Positions 4,298 through 14,582 of a stretch of DNA of 32,000 nt are shown in pieces. The stretch spans positions 390,001 through 422,000 of the forward strand of contig NC_017448.1 in the NCBI RefSeq assembly GCF_000146505.1, written 5' to 3'. Origin of the DNA: Fibrobacter succinogenes subsp. succinogenes S85. Its GTDB lineage: Bacteria; Fibrobacterota; Fibrobacteria; Fibrobacterales; Fibrobacteraceae. The position numbers and the translations under genes are program-made. Each line of letters opens with the position of its first letter. The first letter of the stretch is position 1. Below the pieces are notes generated by a model. The model was given only the letters and a program-made list of their open reading frames with translations, did no database searches and was not told the DNA's origin.

Positions 4298-5725
4298 TTA
4301 TTTCTTAACTTTCACGACTCTCGCTTGCGGGTTCTGCTTGCCAAGCAAGTCATAAGTGCGGGAGGTGCGCAAGCTGCGGGACTGCACCGGGCGATTGCGC
4401 TTGAAAATGGAAATCGTACCATCGTCGGTCTTAAAGTTTTCAATGTGCGTAATGCCGTTATTCACGTAATCGTCAAGGCCGTACGCATGACGCATGATGT
4501 TCAAAACGTCCTTGTCAAACACGGAACCGTCCGGTTCTGTCTGGCGACGGATAATAGTCATGTTGTTTTCGCCTTCGTGGCCCGTATCCCAGGCGATAGG
4601 CACCACTTTGTTTTCCTTCGCGAGTTTCATCACGGCATCGTAATAAGCGAGGCGGCCCTTGCGGTGTTTCGCATAATTGTCGCCGGTCAACACCCCCACG
4701 CGGTCATTCGCACCGAACTCGCCGATAATCACAGGCACGCCCTTATTGACAAAATTCTTTTTCATCTTGCCGAACTGGTCCTGAATTTGTGCGCTGGTGC
4801 ACTTGTCGCCCATAGCTCCCGCCCAGGCGTTGTAGCCGCAGTTATGCACAATATCCGCACCAGTCGCGAGGTCGTCGCCCCAGTAGTACTGCGGATAGAC
4901 CTGAGCGCCCCAATCAACAACGTCATTCAACAGCGTGTAGGTATAAGGGTCATAGAAATGCACTTCGACCATCAGGCGGTCCGCAATCACGTCTTTCGGG
5001 AGCTTGCTCACAGGCATCACTTCGCAACTGCGGTCCACACTTGTCGATGGCCCCTGAATCACGAGCGTACGGCTGGCGTTGTTGCCACCCGTTGCACGCA
5101 CGGCGTCCACAAACGACTGGTGGTACGTCATCAGGATTTCGGTTTCGTGCTTGTAATTATCGTCCGTTGTCGCGGGTTCGTTAGCGCTTGCAAAAAGCAA
5201 ATTTTCGTTATAGTTCTTGAAGCGGTTTGCAATCTGCGTCCAGAAATCCTTCTGGCGGGCGTTCACCTTGTCTTTTTCCTTGTCGTTTAGGTTGCCTTCG
5301 AGCCAGCCATTATCCCAATGGATGTTCAAAATCGTCACAAGGCCAGCGCGCATGCAGTAATCCACGACCGTCTGCACGGAATCCATCCAGCTAGAAGCAA
5401 TTTCGTTCGGGCCACCGCCCGGAACAATGTCTGCCCTGCTAGAATCGCGCGACAAAGCATTCGAATGGCTGTACCACGCGCACGGAATACGAATCGTGCT
5501 GAAGCCCGCCGCCTTGACCGAATCAATGTACGCCTCAGTCGGGAACTTGTTGCCCCACCACGTCGGATTCTGAGGAACTTCCATCGTGTTCCCGATATTT
5601 ATGCCAAAGCCCATCTTGGCAAACATTTCGTTTGCCGTCGGCAAATCTGCCGCGAAGGAATTTGACGCCAATGCAAAAGAGAACGCGCTGCAAAGAGCAG
5701 CAACGCGAATGTGCTGTTTCAACAT
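4298..5725 (-). CDS. Secreted glycoside hydrolase family 5 (endoglucanase/cellulase-type) with a short basic C-terminal tail
   Basis: GH5 hallmarks are present: FSTIRIPCAW, FASANEP (NEP acid/base) and VIIGEFG (GEF nucleophile). The likely true start is MLKQHIRVAALCSAFSFALASNSFA (signal peptide) at 5725 rather than the ORF-track start at 5818. The tail RSLRTSRTYDLLGKQNPQARVVKVKK is strongly basic. Confidence 0.85.
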   Translation of the reverse strand: MLKQHIRVAALCSAFSFALASNSFAADLPTANEMFAKMGFGINIGNTMEVPQNPTWWGNKFPTEAYIDSVKAAGFSTIRIPCAWYSHSNALSRDSSRADIVPGGGPNEIASSWMDSVQTVVDYCMRAGLVTILNIHWDNGWLEGNLNDKEKDKVNARQKDFWTQIANRFKNYNENLLFASANEPATTDDNYKHETEILMTYHQSFVDAVRATGGNNASRTLVIQGPSTSVDRSCEVMPVSKLPKDVIADRLMVEVHFYDPYTYTLLNDVVDWGAQVYPQYYWGDDLATGADIVHNCGYNAWAGAMGDKCTSAQIQDQFGKMKKNFVNKGVPVIIGEFGANDRVGVLTGDNYAKHRKGRLAYYDAVMKLAKENKVVPIAWDTGHEGENNMTIIRRQTEPDGSVFDKDVLNIMRHAYGLDDYVNNGITHIENFKTDDGTISIFKRNRPVQSRSLRTSRTYDLLGKQNPQARVVKVKK

Positions 5726-5943: not shown

Positions 5944-7161
5944 TTATTCTTTCACATCGTTTTCGAAAAGAGCATAGCCTCGGGCAGCTTTCAACATATT
6001 CGTGGTAGTATCAACTTGAATACCAATAAAACCGGTATAAAGCCTCAAAGGAATCTTTTCACCTGAATAATTCCATTCAATCCGTATCGAGGTCACTCCT
6101 CTAGGAACATTATTAACATCCAGTTGTTCATTCCAATCTGGAGAATGCCTTTTATAAGCATCAATACGTTCGTTTAAATAATTACTCTCGTTTATATCTA
6201 ATCCAGTGTACGGGAAAAATCTAGAAATCCAACCATTAAAGGTCACATTGCCACAAAATTCTGGAATGTAACGCTTGTATATTCCTCTCCAATGATCCAT
6301 ATTTATTTTGCCTTCAAAGACATTGATAAATTCATCAAGAATAGGATTAAGCCCAACAGCCCACCAATCCATATCCAGACGCGATGCAAGTCTGTTAAAA
6401 GAATCCTTGAGCAAAATCCAGTCTTCTTTTTTACCATTTATCTTGATTTTGGGGATTCCGCAAAGCGAAGAAACCACATACTCGTAATATTCAGCAGCCA
6501 CAGCCATGACCATCGCACTAGAAATGTTGTAATCCACCGGGCTTGTCGTCGAGAACTTTGTTTTAAGCGGCAACCCAGTCTCTTCGGGCAACTTGGACTG
6601 CAAGACTTCAAATAAATTCGCAAGCGTCCAGAACCATTCATGATGCGTTGATTCGGTGGTCAGCGAATTATCCTCAAAAGTAACTACAGTATCCGTTCCC
6701 GGAGTAACAAACTTATCTTTCAAAGCTTCGCGATTGCTTTTGACATGGTAGCGGAAACCATCCAAAATCATAAGCCAAATATCATCTGGGTTTATTTCCA
6801 GAGAATAATGATTGGCAAACGCAAGTTCAACGACATCAAAGAATGATGATATATCAGACGTTCCACTGATAAAAGGGCTTATCGAATCAGAATACGCATA
6901 AAAAATCTTGCGTCCTCTTTCTTGTTTATTTATAGAAAAATGTTCTGCAAAACCACCCTTTTCAACAGGAACAAGTTTCTCTTTAAAAGGTTTGCTTTGA
7001 ACGCTAGAATCAACGATCATGACATACGCACACGTATCGCGGACAAAGCCTTCGAAACTTTGCTTCGCGTTCGAAGACAATTTGATGACTTTTTCGTCTC
7101 CACAAGAAGAAAGTACGTATGCGGCTAGGATAAAGAAAAAGAATTTGTAAAGGATATGCAT
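5944..7161 (-). CDS. Lipoprotein, DUF4419-like module only (P3 of the paralog array)
   Basis: Lipobox ...AAYVLSSC. The segments HYSLEINPDDIWLMILDGFRYHVKSNREALKDKFV and CGIPKIKINGKKEDWILLKDSFNRL match my recollection of the DUF4419 family signatures (..RPDDVWLAIL.QF.FY....AE.LR..FV, GIP.vtL.G...DW..il.rl). It is clearly paralogous to 9587-10897 and to the N-half of 10904-13321. It ends right after the P module (KAARGYALFENDVKE). Confidence 0.75.
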   Translation of the reverse strand: MHILYKFFFFILAAYVLSSCGDEKVIKLSSNAKQSFEGFVRDTCAYVMIVDSSVQSKPFKEKLVPVEKGGFAEHFSINKQERGRKIFYAYSDSISPFISGTSDISSFFDVVELAFANHYSLEINPDDIWLMILDGFRYHVKSNREALKDKFVTPGTDTVVTFEDNSLTTESTHHEWFWTLANLFEVLQSKLPEETGLPLKTKFSTTSPVDYNISSAMVMAVAAEYYEYVVSSLCGIPKIKINGKKEDWILLKDSFNRLASRLDMDWWAVGLNPILDEFINVFEGKINMDHWRGIYKRYIPEFCGNVTFNGWISRFFPYTGLDINESNYLNERIDAYKRHSPDWNEQLDVNNVPRGVTSIRIEWNYSGEKIPLRLYTGFIGIQVDTTTNMLKAARGYALFENDVKE

Positions 7162-7179
7162 ACTAACAATATAAAAAAT

Positions 7180-8457
7180 TTATTCTTCCACAAAGCAGGC
7201 CGGGATTTTGAGCTGGACGACTTGATTTAAAGAAAGGTCTTCTTTGACGTACATAGCATGGTATCGATCAAACAACGTGTATATTGTCGGAAATTTAATC
7301 GGCTTTTTAGTGAATAGCGGCTCTATTTTTATACATTCCAAATAATTAATTCCGCTCGTAGCAAAGTCCTTCGTAAATCGGATTTCATCACAATGTTCTT
7401 TGATAATGCCAGAATAACCGGCAATCTCAACAGAATCTTTTTCACTTCCCTCTCCCTTACATTCCAATCGGAAATATTCTCTAGAAAACGAAAGATGGAC
7501 CTTTTCTGACTTGACAATTTCTTGTGCAGCGACATAACTCCAAATATTCCGTGATTGTAATTCCGGAGGCAAATTATCAGAGAAATACATACAAGGAAGC
7601 GGATCCATAAGACGAGTTTGCACCGTTGGCGGCATCCAGGCATAATATAAAATGGACTTGACTTCTTCCAAAAAATCCTTATACTCGGGATGTTCCGTAT
7701 CCATCGAAACATTCGTAACGCGACCACTATCCCCAAACGTAATCGTAGCATCAACAGAAAGATTAAAGCCCTCTTTATAATATCGTTTGAGCGCTCGTTC
7801 AAGCCGCCAACCACAAGGTTTCTTTACACTTTGAATAAGGCCCGTTTCAAATTCCCTTGGCGGCATCGTATCACCAAGATTTTTCCCTTCTTTAAGTTCA
7901 AAAGCGTCAATGTATATATCCACTTTCAACGCTGGTAGATTCGGACGTGTTTTGAATTCCGCAGTTTTACCCTCTGTAGAAATTTTCCGTTCCTTGAAAA
8001 ACGCATAAATAGGATCCAGTTTTTTTATTCTGCCACAACCTTGCAACGAATATACAACGCCATCAAACACCGTATCCCCAGAATAAGGATTTTCAAAGTA
8101 GAATAAATAATCAATCAGTTTCCCTTTTTGAAATAAGCTAACAGACAAATTCGCTTCATCTTCAGAAACATATCTGAGGCTTCTATCATATTCAACATAT
8201 TCTTCATCAAGTACCGAAGCCTTGGCAAATTTTTTGATTTCCTTCAAGCTATTCGTTGTGTAGGCCAAGCCCTGCGCGTTATAAACAACCATAGAATCTG
8301 CAAGCGCTAAAGATTCTTGCATAGGTCGCGGTTTTCCAGGAATAAAATCTACAGAAACATTATCACGTTCCTGTTCGCAAGAGAGCAGAACGCATGCGGC
8401 AAGGATGAGGAAAAGAAATTTAGAAACGGAAATCTTCATTGTATTTTTCATCTTCAT
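7180..8457 (-). CDS. Lipoprotein, Q module only (Q3): a P-type signal peptide joined directly to the linker and Q domain
   Basis: Lipobox LILAACVLLSC followed by EQERD, as in P2. The next segment, NVSVDFIPGKPRPMQESLALADSMVVYN, aligns to the P-Q linker of the fused paralog (NVADTMTYIPGKPHRMLEMLAISDSMNIYD). The C-terminus is ...VVQLKIPACFVEE. Start is ambiguous: 8457, 8451 or 8439 (MKISVSKF...). Confidence 0.7.
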   Translation of the reverse strand: MKMKNTMKISVSKFLFLILAACVLLSCEQERDNVSVDFIPGKPRPMQESLALADSMVVYNAQGLAYTTNSLKEIKKFAKASVLDEEYVEYDRSLRYVSEDEANLSVSLFQKGKLIDYLFYFENPYSGDTVFDGVVYSLQGCGRIKKLDPIYAFFKERKISTEGKTAEFKTRPNLPALKVDIYIDAFELKEGKNLGDTMPPREFETGLIQSVKKPCGWRLERALKRYYKEGFNLSVDATITFGDSGRVTNVSMDTEHPEYKDFLEEVKSILYYAWMPPTVQTRLMDPLPCMYFSDNLPPELQSRNIWSYVAAQEIVKSEKVHLSFSREYFRLECKGEGSEKDSVEIAGYSGIIKEHCDEIRFTKDFATSGINYLECIKIEPLFTKKPIKFPTIYTLFDRYHAMYVKEDLSLNQVVQLKIPACFVEE

Positions 8458-9583
8458 TGATTTTTTCTTCTACAAAGCACGGTGGGATTTTGAGTTTTAC
8501 GACTTGCGAAATCGGGAGGCCGCCATCATACACTGCGTCATGTTTGTCAAAACGAACGTTCGTATGCCTTGGCTCGATTTCTTCAGGATGATCCCCGTAC
8601 TTCACTTTTTTATTGTATTCTATACATTCATAACGGACAACGCCGCCTGTTGCAAGGTCTTTCGAGAACGTAATCTCGTTACAAAGATCTTTCTTTGCAT
8701 CCGACGCTCCGACAATATCGACAGAATCTTTAGCATTTCGCCCATTCTCCTTACAGACCATGCGGTAATCCCTTGTAAAAGTAAGATGAATCCAGACATA
8801 GTCGATAATATCTTGAGCGGTTTCTTCATTGCCGACATCCGTACGAACTTTCGGCGGCATCCATCCGTAATACAAAATGTCACGAAGCTCTTTATCAAAA
8901 GCCTTATTTTTCCATCCGTAATACAAAATATCACGAAGTTCTTTATCAAAAGCCTTATTTTTACTCTTACGAGACGCAGTACTCGCGGACGGTAAAAATA
9001 CAGAACCATCATCCTTATACGACAATGAGGCAAGACCAGATAAATTAAAAGTTTCCTTATAATAGCGATACAACAACCTTTTGAGTCGCCAACCCATAGA
9101 ATTATTCATTGCTCGGACAATTCCTGTTTTAAAAGCACGCATTTCTAGACCATCTCTAAGAGATTTTCCACTCTTAAGGAAAACCGAATCCACAAAAATT
9201 TTGACATTCAATTTCGGGAGAGATTTTTCATTTTCAAATTCATGGACAGTTCCACTTATAGGAATATCGCGTTCCTTAAAAAAATTCTTGATTGCAGCAG
9301 GCTTTTTCCATCGCCCAACGCCCTGCAACGAAAGCATAGCGCCATCATAATCCGAAGTTAAAAAATCGAGTACGCGCTCCTTGAATGTTTCCTTTCGAGG
9401 TTTCGCATAATAAAGCAAATGATCCACTAGCTTGCCATCTCGGTACAAATTGATAGATAGATTGGGTTCACCAACCCCGACCATTTCCCTACGCCACGAT
9501 TCGGCTTCAGGATATTCTTCATCAAAGGAAGAAAATTCAGCAAATTCCTCTATTTCGTCAGCGTTATTAGTTGCATAAACCAA
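8420..9583 (-). pseudogene. Q2 module without its own ATG or signal peptide. It is separated from P2 by a single in-frame TAA, so it is a disrupted fusion, or a fusion that needs readthrough.
   Basis: Same reading frame as 9587-10897. The minus strand reads ...TCC ATG AAT ATT TAT GGG GAA TAA GGC TTG GTT TAT GCA..., which aligns codon-for-codon with the intact fusion (SMNIYDKNGLSFAT). The listed start is TTG, and the first ATG is 34 codons in. It also carries a 51-bp in-frame tandem duplication and a 14-codon C-terminal extension past the family terminus CFVEE. Confidence 0.6.
8861..8962. repeat. 51-bp perfect-phase tandem duplication (2 copies) inside Q2
   Basis: Copy A is 8861-8911, ccatccgtaatacaaaatgtcacgaagctctttatcaaaagccttattttt. 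Copy B is 8912-8962 and is identical except g>a and c>t (49/51). It encodes KNKAFDKELRDILYYGW twice, and both differences are synonymous (GAC/GAT, GAG/GAA). Confidence 0.95.
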
Positions 9584-9586
9584 GCC

Positions 9587-10897
9587 TTATTCCCCATAAA
9601 TATTCATGGAATCCGAAAATGCCAAAGATTCCACCAAGCGATATGCTTTTCCAGGAATATACTTTGTATTCCGAGCAACATTTTTTAACTTTTGCATTCC
9701 ATAAGAGACAAGAGCGTAACCTCTAGAAGCCTTCAACATATTATTTGTGGTATCCACCTGCATACCGATAAAACCGGTATAAAGTTTCAATGGAATTATC
9801 TCCTGAAAGAATTCCCATCGGATATCTATAAAAGTAATCCCCCTAGGAACTTGTTTAAAATCTAATTTTTTATTCCAATCATTGCGTTTGATATATTTTT
9901 CCGTATCAGAATACAAATCTTTTGTATAAGGAAAGAATCTTGAAATCCAGCCACTAAAATCAGGAGTACCACAACCTTCGGGTTCGTAATACTTATAAAT
10001 ATTTTTCCAATGTTTTAGATTTATTTTGCCATCATAAATATTGATAAACTCATCTAAAATAGGATTAAGTCCATCCGCCCACCATTTCATATCCAACTGT
10101 GAAGCTAGTCTGTTAAAGGAATCCTTGAGTAAAGTCCAGTCCTCTTTTGTACCATTCACTTTTATTTTCGGAATTCCACAAAGCGTTGTAACCCTATACG
10201 AATAATATTCCGATGCCACAGCCATCGTCATCGTACGAGAAATATTTGCATCCACAGGGCTTGTCGTCGAAAATTTCGTTCGCAACGGAGCGCCCGTTTC
10301 TAGAGGCAACTTAGCCTGCAATGAATCAAACAGTTCCGAGAGCGTATAGAACCATTCCTTGTGCGTAGATTCTAGAGTCAACGAATTATCCATAACCGAG
10401 ACCACAGTATCAGTACCCGGAGCTACAAAGCGGTCCTTGAGGGCTTTGCGATTGTTCTTGACATGAAGACGAAAGCCGTCCAAAATCATAAGCCAGATAT
10501 CATCTGGATTTATTTCCATAGCATAATGCTTGGCGTATGCAAGGGCGACAAGATTAATGAAAGAAGGTTCTTCAGAAGAACCTTTAACAAACGGATTCAC
10601 AGAATCGGAATACGCATAAAAAATTTTTTGCCCGTTCGTCCCCTTTTTCTCCGCTTCGTTTGCAAAATACTCTACGAAGCCGCCTCTTTTTACATGGATG
10701 ATTTTTTCATTGAATACGCTATCGCGAACAGTCGTATCAATAACCAGCGCATAAGCACTTGTATCGCGAGCAAAGCCTTCAAAACTCTCGGTCGGTTTCG
10801 AAGAAATCTCAATCACCGGCTCATCACGTTTCTGTTCGCAAGAGAGCAGAGCGTATGCGGCAAGGAAGAGGAAAAGGAATTTGTAAAGGCTATGCAT
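9587..10897 (-). CDS. Lipoprotein, DUF4419-like module plus linker (P2), ending at a premature TAA relative to the fused paralog
   Basis: Lipobox AAYALLSC. The P module is highly similar to P1 and P3 (AMEINPDDIWLMILDGFRLHVKNNRKALKDRFV, CGIPKIKVNGTKEDWTLLKDSFNRL). It continues into the linker (KYIPGKAYRLVESLAFSDSMNIYGE) before the stop. Only 6 nt separate it from the stop of the upstream gene. Confidence 0.75.
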   Translation of the reverse strand: MHSLYKFLFLFLAAYALLSCEQKRDEPVIEISSKPTESFEGFARDTSAYALVIDTTVRDSVFNEKIIHVKRGGFVEYFANEAEKKGTNGQKIFYAYSDSVNPFVKGSSEEPSFINLVALAYAKHYAMEINPDDIWLMILDGFRLHVKNNRKALKDRFVAPGTDTVVSVMDNSLTLESTHKEWFYTLSELFDSLQAKLPLETGAPLRTKFSTTSPVDANISRTMTMAVASEYYSYRVTTLCGIPKIKVNGTKEDWTLLKDSFNRLASQLDMKWWADGLNPILDEFINIYDGKINLKHWKNIYKYYEPEGCGTPDFSGWISRFFPYTKDLYSDTEKYIKRNDWNKKLDFKQVPRGITFIDIRWEFFQEIIPLKLYTGFIGMQVDTTNNMLKASRGYALVSYGMQKLKNVARNTKYIPGKAYRLVESLAFSDSMNIYGE

Positions 10898-10903
10898 AAT
10901 CTA

Positions 10904-13321
10904 TCATTCTTCCACGAAACAAGCTGGAATTTTAAGCTTTACGACTTGCGATATCGGGAGGTTATAACGAGTATCATATACGTCGTTACGCTTGTTAAAA
11001 TACGCATTTGTATAAGTGGAACGAATTCTTTCACGAGGTTCCCCATACAAAGCGTTGAACCTAGCCATAAGAGAGTCTGCAAGTGTAGAATCTTTAGAGT
11101 TCAACATTTTTTCTCGTTTCTTAGGCACTATTATTTTATTGTATTCTAAACATTCATAGCGGACAACACCGCCTGTTGCAAGGTCTTTAGAGAACTTAAT
11201 TTCACTGCAAAGGCTCTTTTTTGCAGACGGAGCTCCAATGATATCGACTGAATCTTTGGCATCTTGCCCATTCTGCTTGCAAACCATGCGGTATTCCCTT
11301 GTAAACGCAAGATGGATTTTAACGAAATCAACAATTTCTTGTGCGATTTCATCATTGCCGATATCCGTATGAACTTCTGGAGGCATATAACCGTAATGTA
11401 ACACATCCCTCAATTCCTCTTTGAATTCTTTATTGGAATCAGGCTCCAAGGATAAGGATACATGCTCATCTACACGGCCTTTTTCTTTATAGCCCATCGC
11501 TGCTACTGCGGATAAATCAAAATTATCATTATAATAGCGATACAACAATCTCTTGAGGCGCCAGCCCATTGAGTTTTTAAAGGCTTGGATTATCCCTGTT
11601 TTAAATTCACCCATTTCAAGATCTTCTCTAAGAGATTTTCCCTCTTTTAAGACAACCGTATCCACAAGAATATCGATATTCAATTTCGGGAGGGATTGTT
11701 CATTTTCAAATTCCTTAACCACGCCATCAATAGCGACATTTCGTTCCTTAAAGAAGGATTCAATACGTTCCTTGTCATTTATTGCAACCACGCCCTGGAG
11801 GGTAAGAATCCCGCCAGCATTCTCTTCAGGCACAACGAAATATTGCAAGTGATCTAAGAGTTTTCCATCTTTGAACAGGTTGACCGACAAAATCGATTTA
11901 TACTTTTTTTCTATTCTGGACCGTATAGATGGTTCCATATATTCGTCTTTGTAGTTCGAAGCCTTTATAAAATTCTCAATTTCATTGCGGTCATGCGTCG
12001 CAAAAGAGAGGCCGTTTTTGTCATAGATATTCATTGAATCCGAGATGGCCAACATCTCTAGCATACGATGCGGTTTCCCAGGAATATAAGTCATTGTATC
12101 CGCAACATTCTTTATATCGCACCAGCCACATTGCGAACGCAAAGCGTACCCTCTAGCAGCCTTCAGCATTTTCGAAGTCGTATCCACCTGGATTCCGACA
12201 AATCCTGTATAAAGTTTCAAAGGAATTTCTTGACCCAAATAGTTCCATTTAACATCAACAGACGTAAGAGCATTCGGCAGGGTTTCGAAATCGACATCAT
12301 GTTCCCAATCTGTACGTTTTACAAACTCCATTTTATCAGAATATCCCATCAAGTACGGATAGAACTTGGAGAACCAGCCATTGAATTTAGGATTTCCACA
12401 TCCTTTGGGTTCGTATAGCTTATATATATTTTTCCAAAAAGCGATAGAACTATTTCCATCGAAAGCTTTAACAAATTCATCAAGAATCGGATTTAACTGT
12501 TGTAACCACCATTCCATATCAAGGCGAGTTGCAAGCTTATTAAAAGAATCCTTCAACAAGCTCCAATCCTCTTTTGTGCCATTAATCCTTATTTGGGGAA
12601 TACCGCAGAAAGTATAGGCAAAAAATGTATAATATTCAGACGCTATGGCCATGACCATAGAACGGGAAATATTGTAATCGACCGGGCTTGTGGTCGAAAA
12701 TTTCGTCCGCAACGGAGCACCCGTTTCTGGCGGCAACTTTTCTTGAAGATTATCGAAAAAATCTGCAATGACGCCAAACCATTCTTCGTGCGTAGATTCC
12801 ATAGTCAGGTGATTCGCAAAGACCTTAATGTCCGTATCGACATCAGGGCCAACAAAACGGTCTTTCAAAGAATCACTATTGCTCTTTACATGCAAGCGGA
12901 AACCATCTAAAATCAACAGCCAGATATCGTCTGGACTTATTTCCATGGCATAGTGTCTAGCATAGGCCAAAGCGACCAAATCTATAAAAGCCGATTTTTG
13001 GGAACGTCCCTTTACAAATGGACTTATAGAATCCGAATAGGCATAGAAGATTTTAGTTTCAGGGGAACCCTTTTGGTGAAAACTTGAAAAATACTCCGCA
13101 AAGCCCCCTTTCTCTACAGGGACAGTTTCTTCGCGGAAAGCGCTATCGTGAACGGACGTATCGACGACCATCGCGTAAGCACTCGTATCACGGACAAAGC
13201 CGTAAATCTTGTGTGAAGAATCCGGCGAAACGTCAATAGGCTTATTCACTTGCTTGCGTTCGCAAGAGAGCAGAACGCTTGTAGCAAGGAGGAGGTAAAA
13301 GAATTTGTAAAAGCTATGCAT
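10904..13321 (-). CDS. Fused two-module lipoprotein (P1-Q1): DUF4419-like N-half plus Q C-half, 805 aa
   Basis: Lipobox TSVLLSC. The N-half is paralogous to P2 and P3. The linker is NVADTMTYIPGKPHRMLEMLAISDSMNIYDKNGLSF. The C-half is paralogous to Q2 and Q3 and ends KIPACFVEE. It is a single uninterrupted ORF. Confidence 0.8.
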   Translation of the reverse strand: MHSFYKFFYLLLATSVLLSCERKQVNKPIDVSPDSSHKIYGFVRDTSAYAMVVDTSVHDSAFREETVPVEKGGFAEYFSSFHQKGSPETKIFYAYSDSISPFVKGRSQKSAFIDLVALAYARHYAMEISPDDIWLLILDGFRLHVKSNSDSLKDRFVGPDVDTDIKVFANHLTMESTHEEWFGVIADFFDNLQEKLPPETGAPLRTKFSTTSPVDYNISRSMVMAIASEYYTFFAYTFCGIPQIRINGTKEDWSLLKDSFNKLATRLDMEWWLQQLNPILDEFVKAFDGNSSIAFWKNIYKLYEPKGCGNPKFNGWFSKFYPYLMGYSDKMEFVKRTDWEHDVDFETLPNALTSVDVKWNYLGQEIPLKLYTGFVGIQVDTTSKMLKAARGYALRSQCGWCDIKNVADTMTYIPGKPHRMLEMLAISDSMNIYDKNGLSFATHDRNEIENFIKASNYKDEYMEPSIRSRIEKKYKSILSVNLFKDGKLLDHLQYFVVPEENAGGILTLQGVVAINDKERIESFFKERNVAIDGVVKEFENEQSLPKLNIDILVDTVVLKEGKSLREDLEMGEFKTGIIQAFKNSMGWRLKRLLYRYYNDNFDLSAVAAMGYKEKGRVDEHVSLSLEPDSNKEFKEELRDVLHYGYMPPEVHTDIGNDEIAQEIVDFVKIHLAFTREYRMVCKQNGQDAKDSVDIIGAPSAKKSLCSEIKFSKDLATGGVVRYECLEYNKIIVPKKREKMLNSKDSTLADSLMARFNALYGEPRERIRSTYTNAYFNKRNDVYDTRYNLPISQVVKLKIPACFVEE

Positions 13322-13436
13322 ACTAACAATATAAAAACATAGCTTTGCAGAGATTTTATAATAAAAAGTAAAATAATGTATATACGAGAAATTATGGATC
13401 CTTCGCGTTGCTCAGGATGACGGGACTGCAACGGGA

Positions 13437-13928
13437 TTACTTACCGCTCATAATGGCGGCGAGGTCGGCACCACTCAAATTCGTTTTTTCGCTTAAGGCG
13501 GCGACGATTGCGGTGAGCGACTTTTGGCAAGCCATCATGAGATTGTAAACTTGTTCGACAACGTTTGTTTCGGCAAGCTGGTAGTAATAGCAAGCAGCCT
13601 GGAAACTCTGGTAATCAGGGTCACTCCTGTAAAGCTCCATCGGGAGTTCTTTCATAACAGTGTCGAGATCGCAAGCGAAATTTTTACGGATCAAAAAGTC
13701 CGACATGTGGCCCGCAATAGCGATGTGAGCGGCACCATCGAGCGAGCTCCCGGGCATACGCGTGGCGCTCGGTTTTTCCTTGGAATTGTTGATTCTGACG
13801 TAATCAATCTGGCGCTTGAACAGGAATGCGATTAAAGCGTGGCCCGCCTCGTGGCGGCAGAGTTTTTCATATTCTTGTTCACCGAAAAATTCAATTAAGT
13901 TTTCGCGAGTTAATGTTTGTTCTGACAT
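13437..13928 (-). CDS. Stand-alone FtsH-type (peptidase M41-like) HEAGH metalloprotease domain protein, 163 aa, with no AAA+ or transmembrane part
   Basis: LCRHEAGHALIAFLF matches the FtsH zinc site (..YHEAGHA(L/I)..). The downstream IAIAGHMSDFLI and the C-terminal helical tail (...LTAIVAALSEKTNLSGADLAAIM) parallel the layout of the FtsH protease domain. Its start overlaps the upstream hydrolase gene by 19 nt. Confidence 0.65.
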   Translation of the reverse strand: MSEQTLTRENLIEFFGEQEYEKLCRHEAGHALIAFLFKRQIDYVRINNSKEKPSATRMPGSSLDGAAHIAIAGHMSDFLIRKNFACDLDTVMKELPMELYRSDPDYQSFQAACYYYQLAETNVVEQVYNLMMACQKSLTAIVAALSEKTNLSGADLAAIMSGK

Positions 13929-14518
13929 TTTTCAATCCACCTATCTAAAAAATCCATCCGTTCGTCGGTATGGAACCAATGTTCGCCGCCTTGCATAATC
14001 GTGAGCGATGCGCCCACTTTTTGTGCAAATTCGCGCATCGTTTCAAGGTCGGTCAAATTGTCATTGGAGCCGTACAAAATATGCGTCGGGATATTCCATT
14101 TGATGGGATTTTCTCGCACGTAGCAAAGGTATTTCCAAGAAAGCGTCTTGCCAAAGTTCGTCGCAATTTCACCTTTTTCGCGGAGTTCATCTTCGGAGAC
14201 ATTCGCCCAAAGCATCATATTGCAAATGAGCTTTTCCAAGTTCACCATCGGCGAAATGAAGAGCGCCTGCTTGATGCGTTTTTCGCCCAAAGCGTTCATC
14301 GAGAAGAACGCGCCAATGCTATTTGCAATAAGCATGACTTCATCGTAATTTGCGGCAACCGCGTCAAAGTAAGCCGAAAATTCCTGCTTGGCATCCCACG
14401 GGGTTTCAGCCTTGTAATCAAAACCGATGACATCAAAATCCGGGAAAAGGGTCTCGTAATGATTGGCCTCGTCGGCATAGCCGCCTTTCCCATGAATGTA
14501 AATAACAAGCTTTTTCAT
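13910..14518 (-). CDS. Small alpha/beta-fold hydrolase (about 200 aa)
   Basis: VIYIHGKGG (oxyanion region), nucleophile elbow IANSIGA (GxSxG-type variant), acid candidate in YGSNDNL, and His in GGEHWFH. The likely start is MKKLVIY at 14518; the ORF track begins at 14551. Confidence 0.7.
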   Translation of the reverse strand: MKKLVIYIHGKGGYADEANHYETLFPDFDVIGFDYKAETPWDAKQEFSAYFDAVAANYDEVMLIANSIGAFFSMNALGEKRIKQALFISPMVNLEKLICNMMLWANVSEDELREKGEIATNFGKTLSWKYLCYVRENPIKWNIPTHILYGSNDNLTDLETMREFAQKVGASLTIMQGGEHWFHTDERMDFLDRWIEKCQNKH

Positions 14519-14582
14519 TTCTTTTTCGCTTTTTCCGCCTAGAAAATACAAAAATCTACACCAATTGACTAGAGATTGGGAT

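Follow-up and report, generated by a model that had tools for sequence, protein, structure and literature searches.

A 32,000-nucleotide (nt) stretch of Fibrobacter succinogenes subsp. succinogenes S85 DNA (contig NC_017448.1, positions 390,001 to 422,000; hereafter the window) carries on its minus strand a tandem array of lipoprotein paralogs, and the second gene of this array raises a simple question: why is a long reading frame broken once, by a single in-frame TAA, into a 436-amino-acid (aa) open reading frame (ORF), P2, and a downstream frame, Q2? A first-pass annotation of the locus had listed very recent pseudogenisation, a sequencing or assembly error, strain-level on/off variation and stop-codon readthrough as possible answers. 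We consider it very likely that the stop is a genuine single-nucleotide nonsense mutation of S85, that it is recent, and that it yields a P-only-like lipoprotein and a Q remnant.

The interruption is readily seen in the letters. Minus-strand positions 9611-9582 read AAT ATT TAT GGG GAA TAA GGC TTG GTT TAT, with the stop at 9589-9587, and in the ORF list the 436-aa ORF (9587-10897) is followed directly, in the same frame, by one of 387 aa (8420-9583). Translated past the TAA, the frame has 825 codons and aligns with the uninterrupted 805-aa paralog P1Q1 at 59% identity over 776 columns. This alignment runs without a change of frame, and the in-frame match of P2 and Q2 to P1Q1 reflects homology, not chance. 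The first-pass annotation had described a single in-frame TAA between P2 and Q2 at a position that is sense in both paralogs, and the frame and the alignment bear this out. The codons that it quoted are exact for P1Q1 (TAT GAC AAA AAC GGC CTC TCT TTT) and for the Q-only paralog Q3 (AAC GCG CAG GGC TTG GCC TAC), and the column of the stop indeed holds Asn in the former and Gln in the latter. Its account of Q2 was equally accurate: 388 codons are open past the TAA (387 counted from the TTG at 9583), the earliest ATG is codon 35, after 34 codons without one, and there is no signal peptide.

The orthologs indicate what the codon had been. In the closest allele, from a metagenome scaffold with 97.2% nt identity over the gene (L011), the site reads GAA AAA GGC where S85 reads GAA TAA GGC; all flanking codons at the junction are identical, and over 61 nt the two alleles differ by one base. 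Other orthologs have AAA (L015, L018), AAG (L012, which is Fibrobacter sp. UWB12, and L014, L017, L042 and L043) or AAC (L016). At the protein level, Lys occupies the site without interruption in P0001-P0010, P0091, P0092, P0094, P0096 and P0164. The close relatives are all single ORFs with NIYGEKGLVYATN across the junction, the complete ones being about 790-824 aa long, and the intact ones include P0091, from another F. succinogenes isolate in culture, and P0096, from Fibrobacter sp. UWB2. More broadly, K, Q, N or E stands at the aligned position in every homolog that spans the junction motif (154/154, from 254 fetched proteins). No other protein of ~436 aa ending at this point was found among the relatives examined, and a degenerate 38-nt junction pattern matched one contig among the Joint Genome Institute (JGI) metagenome contigs, which carries AAG, and no TAA allele. 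The comparison with the orthologous locus that the first-pass annotation had called for thus returns a sense codon in all relatives examined. Judged from these alignments, the stop is specific to S85 among those relatives, and the mutation is Lys437 to stop (AAA to TAA), an A-to-T transversion at window position 9589 (plus-strand numbering). The CAA-to-TAA transition proposed earlier is wrong on this evidence.

The stop is genuine in S85 and not an artefact of one assembly. Two finished S85 genomes, of 3,842,635 and 3,843,004 bp, have the TAA. The exact P2 protein is encoded in one S85 genome, CP001792.1. The window and CP001792 are separate assemblies, because they differ by a single base at window position 13959 (G vs A, minus strand) in the hydrolase gene at 13910-14551, and both carry the stop; the window presumably belongs to the second finished S85 genome. 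The exact 61-nt junction with TAA is present in 10/10 S85 loci (L001-L010; Logan assemblies from different Sequence Read Archive runs), and 44 blocks of the assembly collection, the two complete S85 genomes among them, encode the identical 436-aa P2 product. In addition, wild-type S85 was resequenced at 398x against CP001792 with all 8 differences listed, and none of them lies near 3,795,672-3,795,674 (Wu et al., PMC5442110). A sequencing or assembly error, with a true S85 gene that is intact, would draw on the general expectation that a lone in-frame stop seen in a single genome is frequently an error, and two 454-era assemblies (L002, L005) do carry a probable homopolymer error elsewhere at the locus (P1Q1, A6 vs A7). 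Here, however, the TAA is shared by two independently finished genomes and ten Logan assemblies, the 398x Illumina data show no variant at the site, and one base is replaced within GAAAAAG, which is no error of homopolymer length. This leaves the explanation a negligible probability. The first-pass annotation had also held that a sense codon in related strains would mean an error; the relatives do have a sense codon, yet the S85 stop is real.

P2 retains a putative lipoprotein signal peptide and the entire DUF4419 domain. By eye, its MHSLYKFLFLFLAAYALLSC matches the PROSITE PS51257-type lipobox pattern, with a lipobox-like LLSC, and its relatives are named 'Lipoprotein' in UniRef and 'putative lipoprotein' in PMC6851124. 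Residues 112-395 match positions 2-302 of the 303-position Pfam model PF14388 (DUF4419) with E=2.8e-57 and a score of 194.9 bits, against a Pfam gathering cut-off of 25, which places P2 in the family. Full-length DUF4419 is found in P1Q1, P2 and P3 alike (E about 1e-56 to 1e-59). We know of no function for the DUF4419 family, and a literature search for it returned only unrelated work. The Q part gave no Pfam or NCBIfam match, and a PDB sequence search with Q3 gave no meaningful match; a Foldseek search of the PDB with a model of a full-length intact ortholog likewise returned nothing (best E=0.68). The named matches to Q in these searches are all from Fibrobacter.

The Q module can be delimited by the natural Q-only paralog Q3 together with a structure model. 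We used an AlphaFold2 model of the intact ortholog P0001 (49 aligned sequences; mean predicted local distance difference test score, pLDDT, 72.6), in which DUF4419 ends near residue 398 and is followed by short helices at 404-410 and 421-427 and then by a hairpin of strands 430-435 and 438-443, with residue 437 in the turn; the blocks covering 431-450 have a pLDDT of about 90. In the fused numbering, P3 ends at ~residue 400, about 30 residues before the P2 stop, and the mature chain of Q3 starts at ~408. The model places the stop ~30-37 residues inside the Q module, in what is predicted to be its first beta-hairpin, and not at a domain boundary. The earlier statement that the stop separates P2 from Q2 holds in the sense of an in-frame split and fails as a description of the P/Q boundary. 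Because the stop lies inside the Q module, P2 carries a Q stub and Q2 lacks the first helix and strand of the predicted fold.

Every relative examined has this gene as a single frame of about 805-825 aa. We propose that the ancestral gene was one ORF encoding a signal peptide, a DUF4419 'P' domain and an uncharacterised 'Q' module, and that an AAA (Lys) to TAA point mutation in this second gene of the tandem lipoprotein paralog array became fixed in S85. Translation would then end at codon 437, in the first Q hairpin, to give a 436-aa P-only-like lipoprotein, and the remaining 388 Q codons, which have no signal peptide, would be left as a probably silent remnant. For practical purposes the 436-aa product is P-only, as P3 is by nature. 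Fibrobacter has many DUF4419 lipoproteins of 397-413 aa that stand alone (the 90% cluster of P3 has 232 members of about 400-413 aa), and since natural homologs of this kind are common, the P-only architecture is viable.

Published proteomics support the view that the truncated P2 protein is made in S85. The glycoside hydrolase family 5 (GH5) cellulase is FSU_0347 (C9RQB4) and purL is FSU_0356 (C9RQC3) in the S85 envelope proteome published by Raut et al. (PMC6851124); because exactly eight window genes lie between these two, FSU_0351 (C9RQB8) corresponds to P2, for which the study reports two peptides, 6% coverage and the name 'putative lipoprotein'. Its accession-sorted table has no entry for C9RQB5, C9RQB6, C9RQB7 (Q2, FSU_0350) or C9RQB9. 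Evidence of transcripts was sought in two further sources: FSU tags are absent from the supplements of PMC4668043, and the array genes are unmentioned in the main text of PMC4619616. We infer that Q2 is most likely an untranslated or non-functional remnant. The mutation could also affect the next gene. Q3 begins 38 nt before the Q2 frame closes, an overlap also seen in the intact allele L011, and in intact alleles the P2Q2 frame ends 38 nt inside Q3, an arrangement typical of translational coupling. Q3 may lose this coupling in S85, where ribosomes would stop 1.16 kb earlier.

The state of the Q2 frame bears on the age of the event. No further stop or frameshift is found in the 388 codons after the TAA, and because no second lesion has accumulated, a recent mutation is supported. 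The 51-nt tandem duplication in Q2 is not a lesion, since it is polymorphic among intact alleles, being present in P0001, P0094 and P0096 (UWB2) and absent from P0002-P0006. The C-terminal extension past CFVEE is kept in all P2Q2 orthologs and so does not reflect a lost stop codon. At window positions 8432-8471, an 18-nt tandem repeat forms this extension (EKINED/EKYNED) and overlaps the Q3 start. Among the changes specific to S85 relative to L011, 7 are replacement and 9 silent in P, against 12 and 18 in Q, which shows no excess of replacement changes. These differences arose by recombination and not by point decay, as blocks of them match other alleles. An attempt to polarise dN and dS (nonsynonymous and synonymous substitution rates) on the S85 branch was rejected because of the single outgroup and the recombination blocks; no replacement excess in Q2 was obvious. 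Of the possibilities raised by the first-pass annotation, very recent pseudogenisation is thus the one that gains support, from a stop specific to S85, a sense codon in relatives and the lack of later lesions.

Several points weigh against this account and should be set beside it. An ORF of this size would stay open by chance more than half the time at ~3% divergence, so the open Q2 frame is uninformative on its own, if consistent with recency, and it may also be compatible with some use of Q2. The TAA may have originated in the rumen or during ~70 years of culture. The evidence for a real stop consists of assemblies and a published variant table, not read pileups. Finally, FSU_0351 is assigned to P2 by gene order, its two peptides could be common to paralogs, and a proteome of the envelope fraction that lacks Q2 gives weak negative evidence.

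Could programmed or leaky readthrough of the TAA let S85 make some full-length P2-Q2 lipoprotein? The Q2 frame is intact and in phase, and in another clade of the family several genomes retain an in-frame TAA that is followed by an open frame. Programmed readthrough such as that at the UGA of the phage Q-beta coat/A1 gene likewise joins an in-frame stop to a long in-phase coding extension. Known cases conserve the stop, however, and mostly use UGA or UAG in a leaky context, whereas the S85 stop is UAA and is conserved in no ortholog, all 154 homologs having K, Q, N or E. Its 61-nt context is that of the sense allele except for one base, so no stimulatory signal has evolved. Selenocysteine or pyrrolysine recoding acts at UGA or UAG and does not apply to this codon. 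TAA is moreover the commonest stop in the window (14/27 ORFs), and there is no tRNA gene within the window. In E. coli, termination at TAA is efficient when G follows, a context that argues against readthrough here with the proviso that the host is Fibrobacter. Q2 was also not detected in the envelope proteome (PMC6851124). We regard readthrough to the fusion, which the first-pass annotation had entertained, as very improbable. A slim chance also attaches to gene fission, in which translation would start again 4 nt past the stop, at the TTG, or at the codon-35 ATG, making Q2 a separate working protein. TAA GGC TTG does offer a possible start right after the stop, preceded by a weakly Shine-Dalgarno-like GGGGAA/AAGG; gene callers annotate Q2 (from TTG 9583, 387 aa, P0090, or from ATG 9484, 354 aa, P0093), and natural Q-only paralogs exist. 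Those Q-only proteins, however, all have their own lipoprotein signal and start ~30 residues further upstream, whereas Q2 has neither a comparable start nor a targeting signal and is predicted to lack the first helix and strand of the fold. Because Q is normally exported and contains conserved cysteines, a fragment in the cytoplasm would be unlikely to fold, and Q2 went undetected in the proteome although many cytoplasmic proteins were detected.

Phase variation is excluded by mechanism: the change is one substitution, GAAAAAG to GAATAAG, with no change in length and no tandem repeat at the site. The strain-level on/off variation suggested by the first-pass annotation applies in the trivial sense that S85 has a null or truncation allele; it does not describe a base substitution as a reversible repeat-length switch. 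The array resembles phase-variable contingency genes in its tandem surface-lipoprotein copies and its on/off-like strain difference, but the substitution sits in the middle of an A5 run, has no mechanism of frequent reversal and shows no site variant at 398x. It is also conceivable, if on balance unlikely, that the truncation is adaptive, with loss of Q selected (by laboratory culture, or phage or antibody escape) as a step in repeated 'domain-shedding'. In other genomes the family does give rise again and again to P-only, Q-only and C-terminally truncated forms, a TAA lies 13 codons further along in another member, on a single metagenome scaffold (L039 568-570), and the truncated product, detected as protein, resembles conserved P-only paralogs. 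On the other side, this is a single event in one strain, P2 and Q2 have similarly low dN and dS counts, and the L039 case comes from one metagenome scaffold and could be an assembly error.

The recent nonsense mutation that we favor is a fresh instance of a well-known and ordinary kind of event. P2-Q2 has an in-frame stop where its orthologs have a sense codon, with same-frame homology beyond it. As with other strain-specific nonsense pseudogenes or split genes of long-cultured reference strains, a single substitution has created a premature stop while orthologs are intact, the downstream frame is open since the event is recent, and annotation pipelines call two adjacent ORFs. The difference is that P2 is probably a working protein: it keeps the whole DUF4419 and the lipoprotein signal, has the architecture of a natural paralog and is detected in the proteome. 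'Truncation allele' is a better fit for P2 than 'dead gene'. The locus offers a small, clean example of how a point mutation can turn a multi-domain surface protein into a single-domain one, in a family that displays all later stages of the process.

Because work on Fibrobacter genetics, proteomics and annotation takes S85 as its reference strain, it matters that FSU_0351 and FSU_0350 are halves of one gene that is intact elsewhere. Expression and proteome data for the two should be interpreted as those of a split single gene, and the split should not be carried into other genomes. One GenBank metagenome-assembled genome (MAG) already has a 370-aa 'protein' inside an intact 807-aa ORF. This entry, P0169 (MBQ7080703.1), starts with MVYATNN at the same TTG as S85 Q2 and was considered as a second stop at the same codon; it was rejected because it equals the exact C-terminal 370 residues of the intact 807-aa P0212 (WP_290925661.1), both being on 51,437-bp contigs. 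P0169 is an annotation artefact, and homology-guided annotation may have propagated the split S85 gene model to the MAG.

The features discussed are collected in Table 1. On the minus strand, the gene order is purL, a RhuM-family gene, the hydrolase, a 163-aa ORF, P1Q1, P2, Q2, Q3, P3 and the GH5 cellulase.

Table 1. Coordinates of the interrupted gene, its paralogs and related in-frame stops (window positions unless a locus is named)
Feature	Position	Strand	Remarks
Premature in-frame TAA	9587..9589	minus	CP001792 3795672-3795674; ancestral codon AAA, Lys437 to stop
P2, truncated ORF, 436 aa	9587..10897	minus	lipoprotein-type signal peptide, DUF4419 and 36-residue Q-module stub
P2 signal peptide with lipobox	10838..10897	minus	MHSLYKFLFLFLAAYALLS followed by C; read from translation
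Q2, Q-module remnant, 388 open codons	8420..9586	minus	no signal peptide; FSU_0350 by gene order
51-nt tandem duplication in Q2	8860..8962	minus	KNKAFDKELRDILYYGW twice (2.0 copies, 96% match)
P1Q1, intact fused paralog, 805 aa	10904..13321	minus	reference for uninterrupted architecture
Q3, natural Q-only paralog, 425 aa	7180..8457	minus	own lipoprotein signal
P3, natural P-only paralog, 405 aa	5944..7161	minus	DUF4419; own lipoprotein signal
Tyr-position TAA of another clade	L023 11178-11180; L024 7515-7517; L039, L040, L041 ~5002-5007 (gene starting 3001)		

A survey of 24 loci from species-representative Fibrobacter genomes, with several metagenome loci, places the array in its family context. 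The family consists of variable tandem arrays of P-Q genes (~760-820 aa), Q-only genes (~415-440 aa, with their own lipoprotein signal) and P-only genes (~400 aa). L042 and L043 preserve the direct orthologous context: hydrolase, 163-aa ORF, an intact 807-aa P-Q gene, Q-only, P-only and GH5 cellulase. Between the hydrolase/163-aa pair and the cellulase, the number and order of P-Q, Q-only and P-only genes vary (L012, L016, L018 and L042 compared with window positions 5944-13321). There are also chimeric genes, for example P0006, with a P3-type N-terminus on a P2Q2 body. The signal peptide of Q3 resembles those of the fused genes, which suggests that Q3 arose by internal deletion of P. Several clades end just before the C-terminal beta-domain; domain loss is common in the family, and the S85 allele looks like its first step.

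Other interruptions were seen in this survey. In a different clade, the Tyr of the conserved FSRDYRMVCK motif is replaced by an in-frame TAA (...ISFSKK TAA RIVCKQNG...), before the C-terminal beta-domain, in five loci that include two species-level MAGs and are identical in local sequence. In all five (5/5), 98-114 open codons follow, up to the canonical CFVEE terminus. Upstream of this stop dN/dS is about 0.3 with dS 0.05-0.23; downstream, the sequences are more diverged and mosaic (dS 0.12-1.3, dN/dS 0.23-0.66). The indels all preserve the frame, and in one locus the tail is of P2Q2 type. Under neutral substitution, the downstream frame would remain open with p ~0.03-0.04 at 24% divergence and ~0.01 at 35%. 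Repeated recombination with intact paralogs is the simplest reading of this pattern, and the downstream segment may be translated. In L039, at 568-570, GAA TAA ATT has TAA in place of Glu, 13 codons after the S85 site, leaving ORFs of 446 and 325 aa; the scaffold may hold a genuine second nonsense allele or be misassembled here. Taken together, the S85 Lys437, L039 Glu and Tyr cases might point to a family-wide habit of in-frame TAAs, combining truncated expression with silent recombining cassettes, as likened to antigenic-variation loci, or allowing partial readthrough; on that reading the frame past each of these stops would have stayed open well beyond the expectation under neutral decay. 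From our analysis we judge such a habit improbable, and neither the Tyr-position nor the L039 case changes the verdict on S85.

Two frameshifts were also encountered. A P-Q gene on a MAG locus (L025 1-2459) is frameshifted inside DUF4419 (ORFs 1-555 and 540-2459), either a real lesion or a MAG assembly error. In the 454-era S85 assemblies L002 and L005 (SRR018590 and SRR018586), A6 instead of A7 at about L001 position 4994 divides P1Q1 into 488 + 309 aa; a homopolymer miscall in 454 sequencing is the likeliest cause.

Scanning the array for promoters and terminators was uninformative: promoter-like sites stayed within the level of shuffled sequences, and no hit bears on the stop site. P3 and P1Q1 have the sequence TTTTTATATTGTTAGT in common directly upstream of their ATG (7162-7180 and 13322-13340). 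It contains no Shine-Dalgarno motif and is absent from P2 and Q3, and it may be a shared leader or promoter element that was copied along with the gene.

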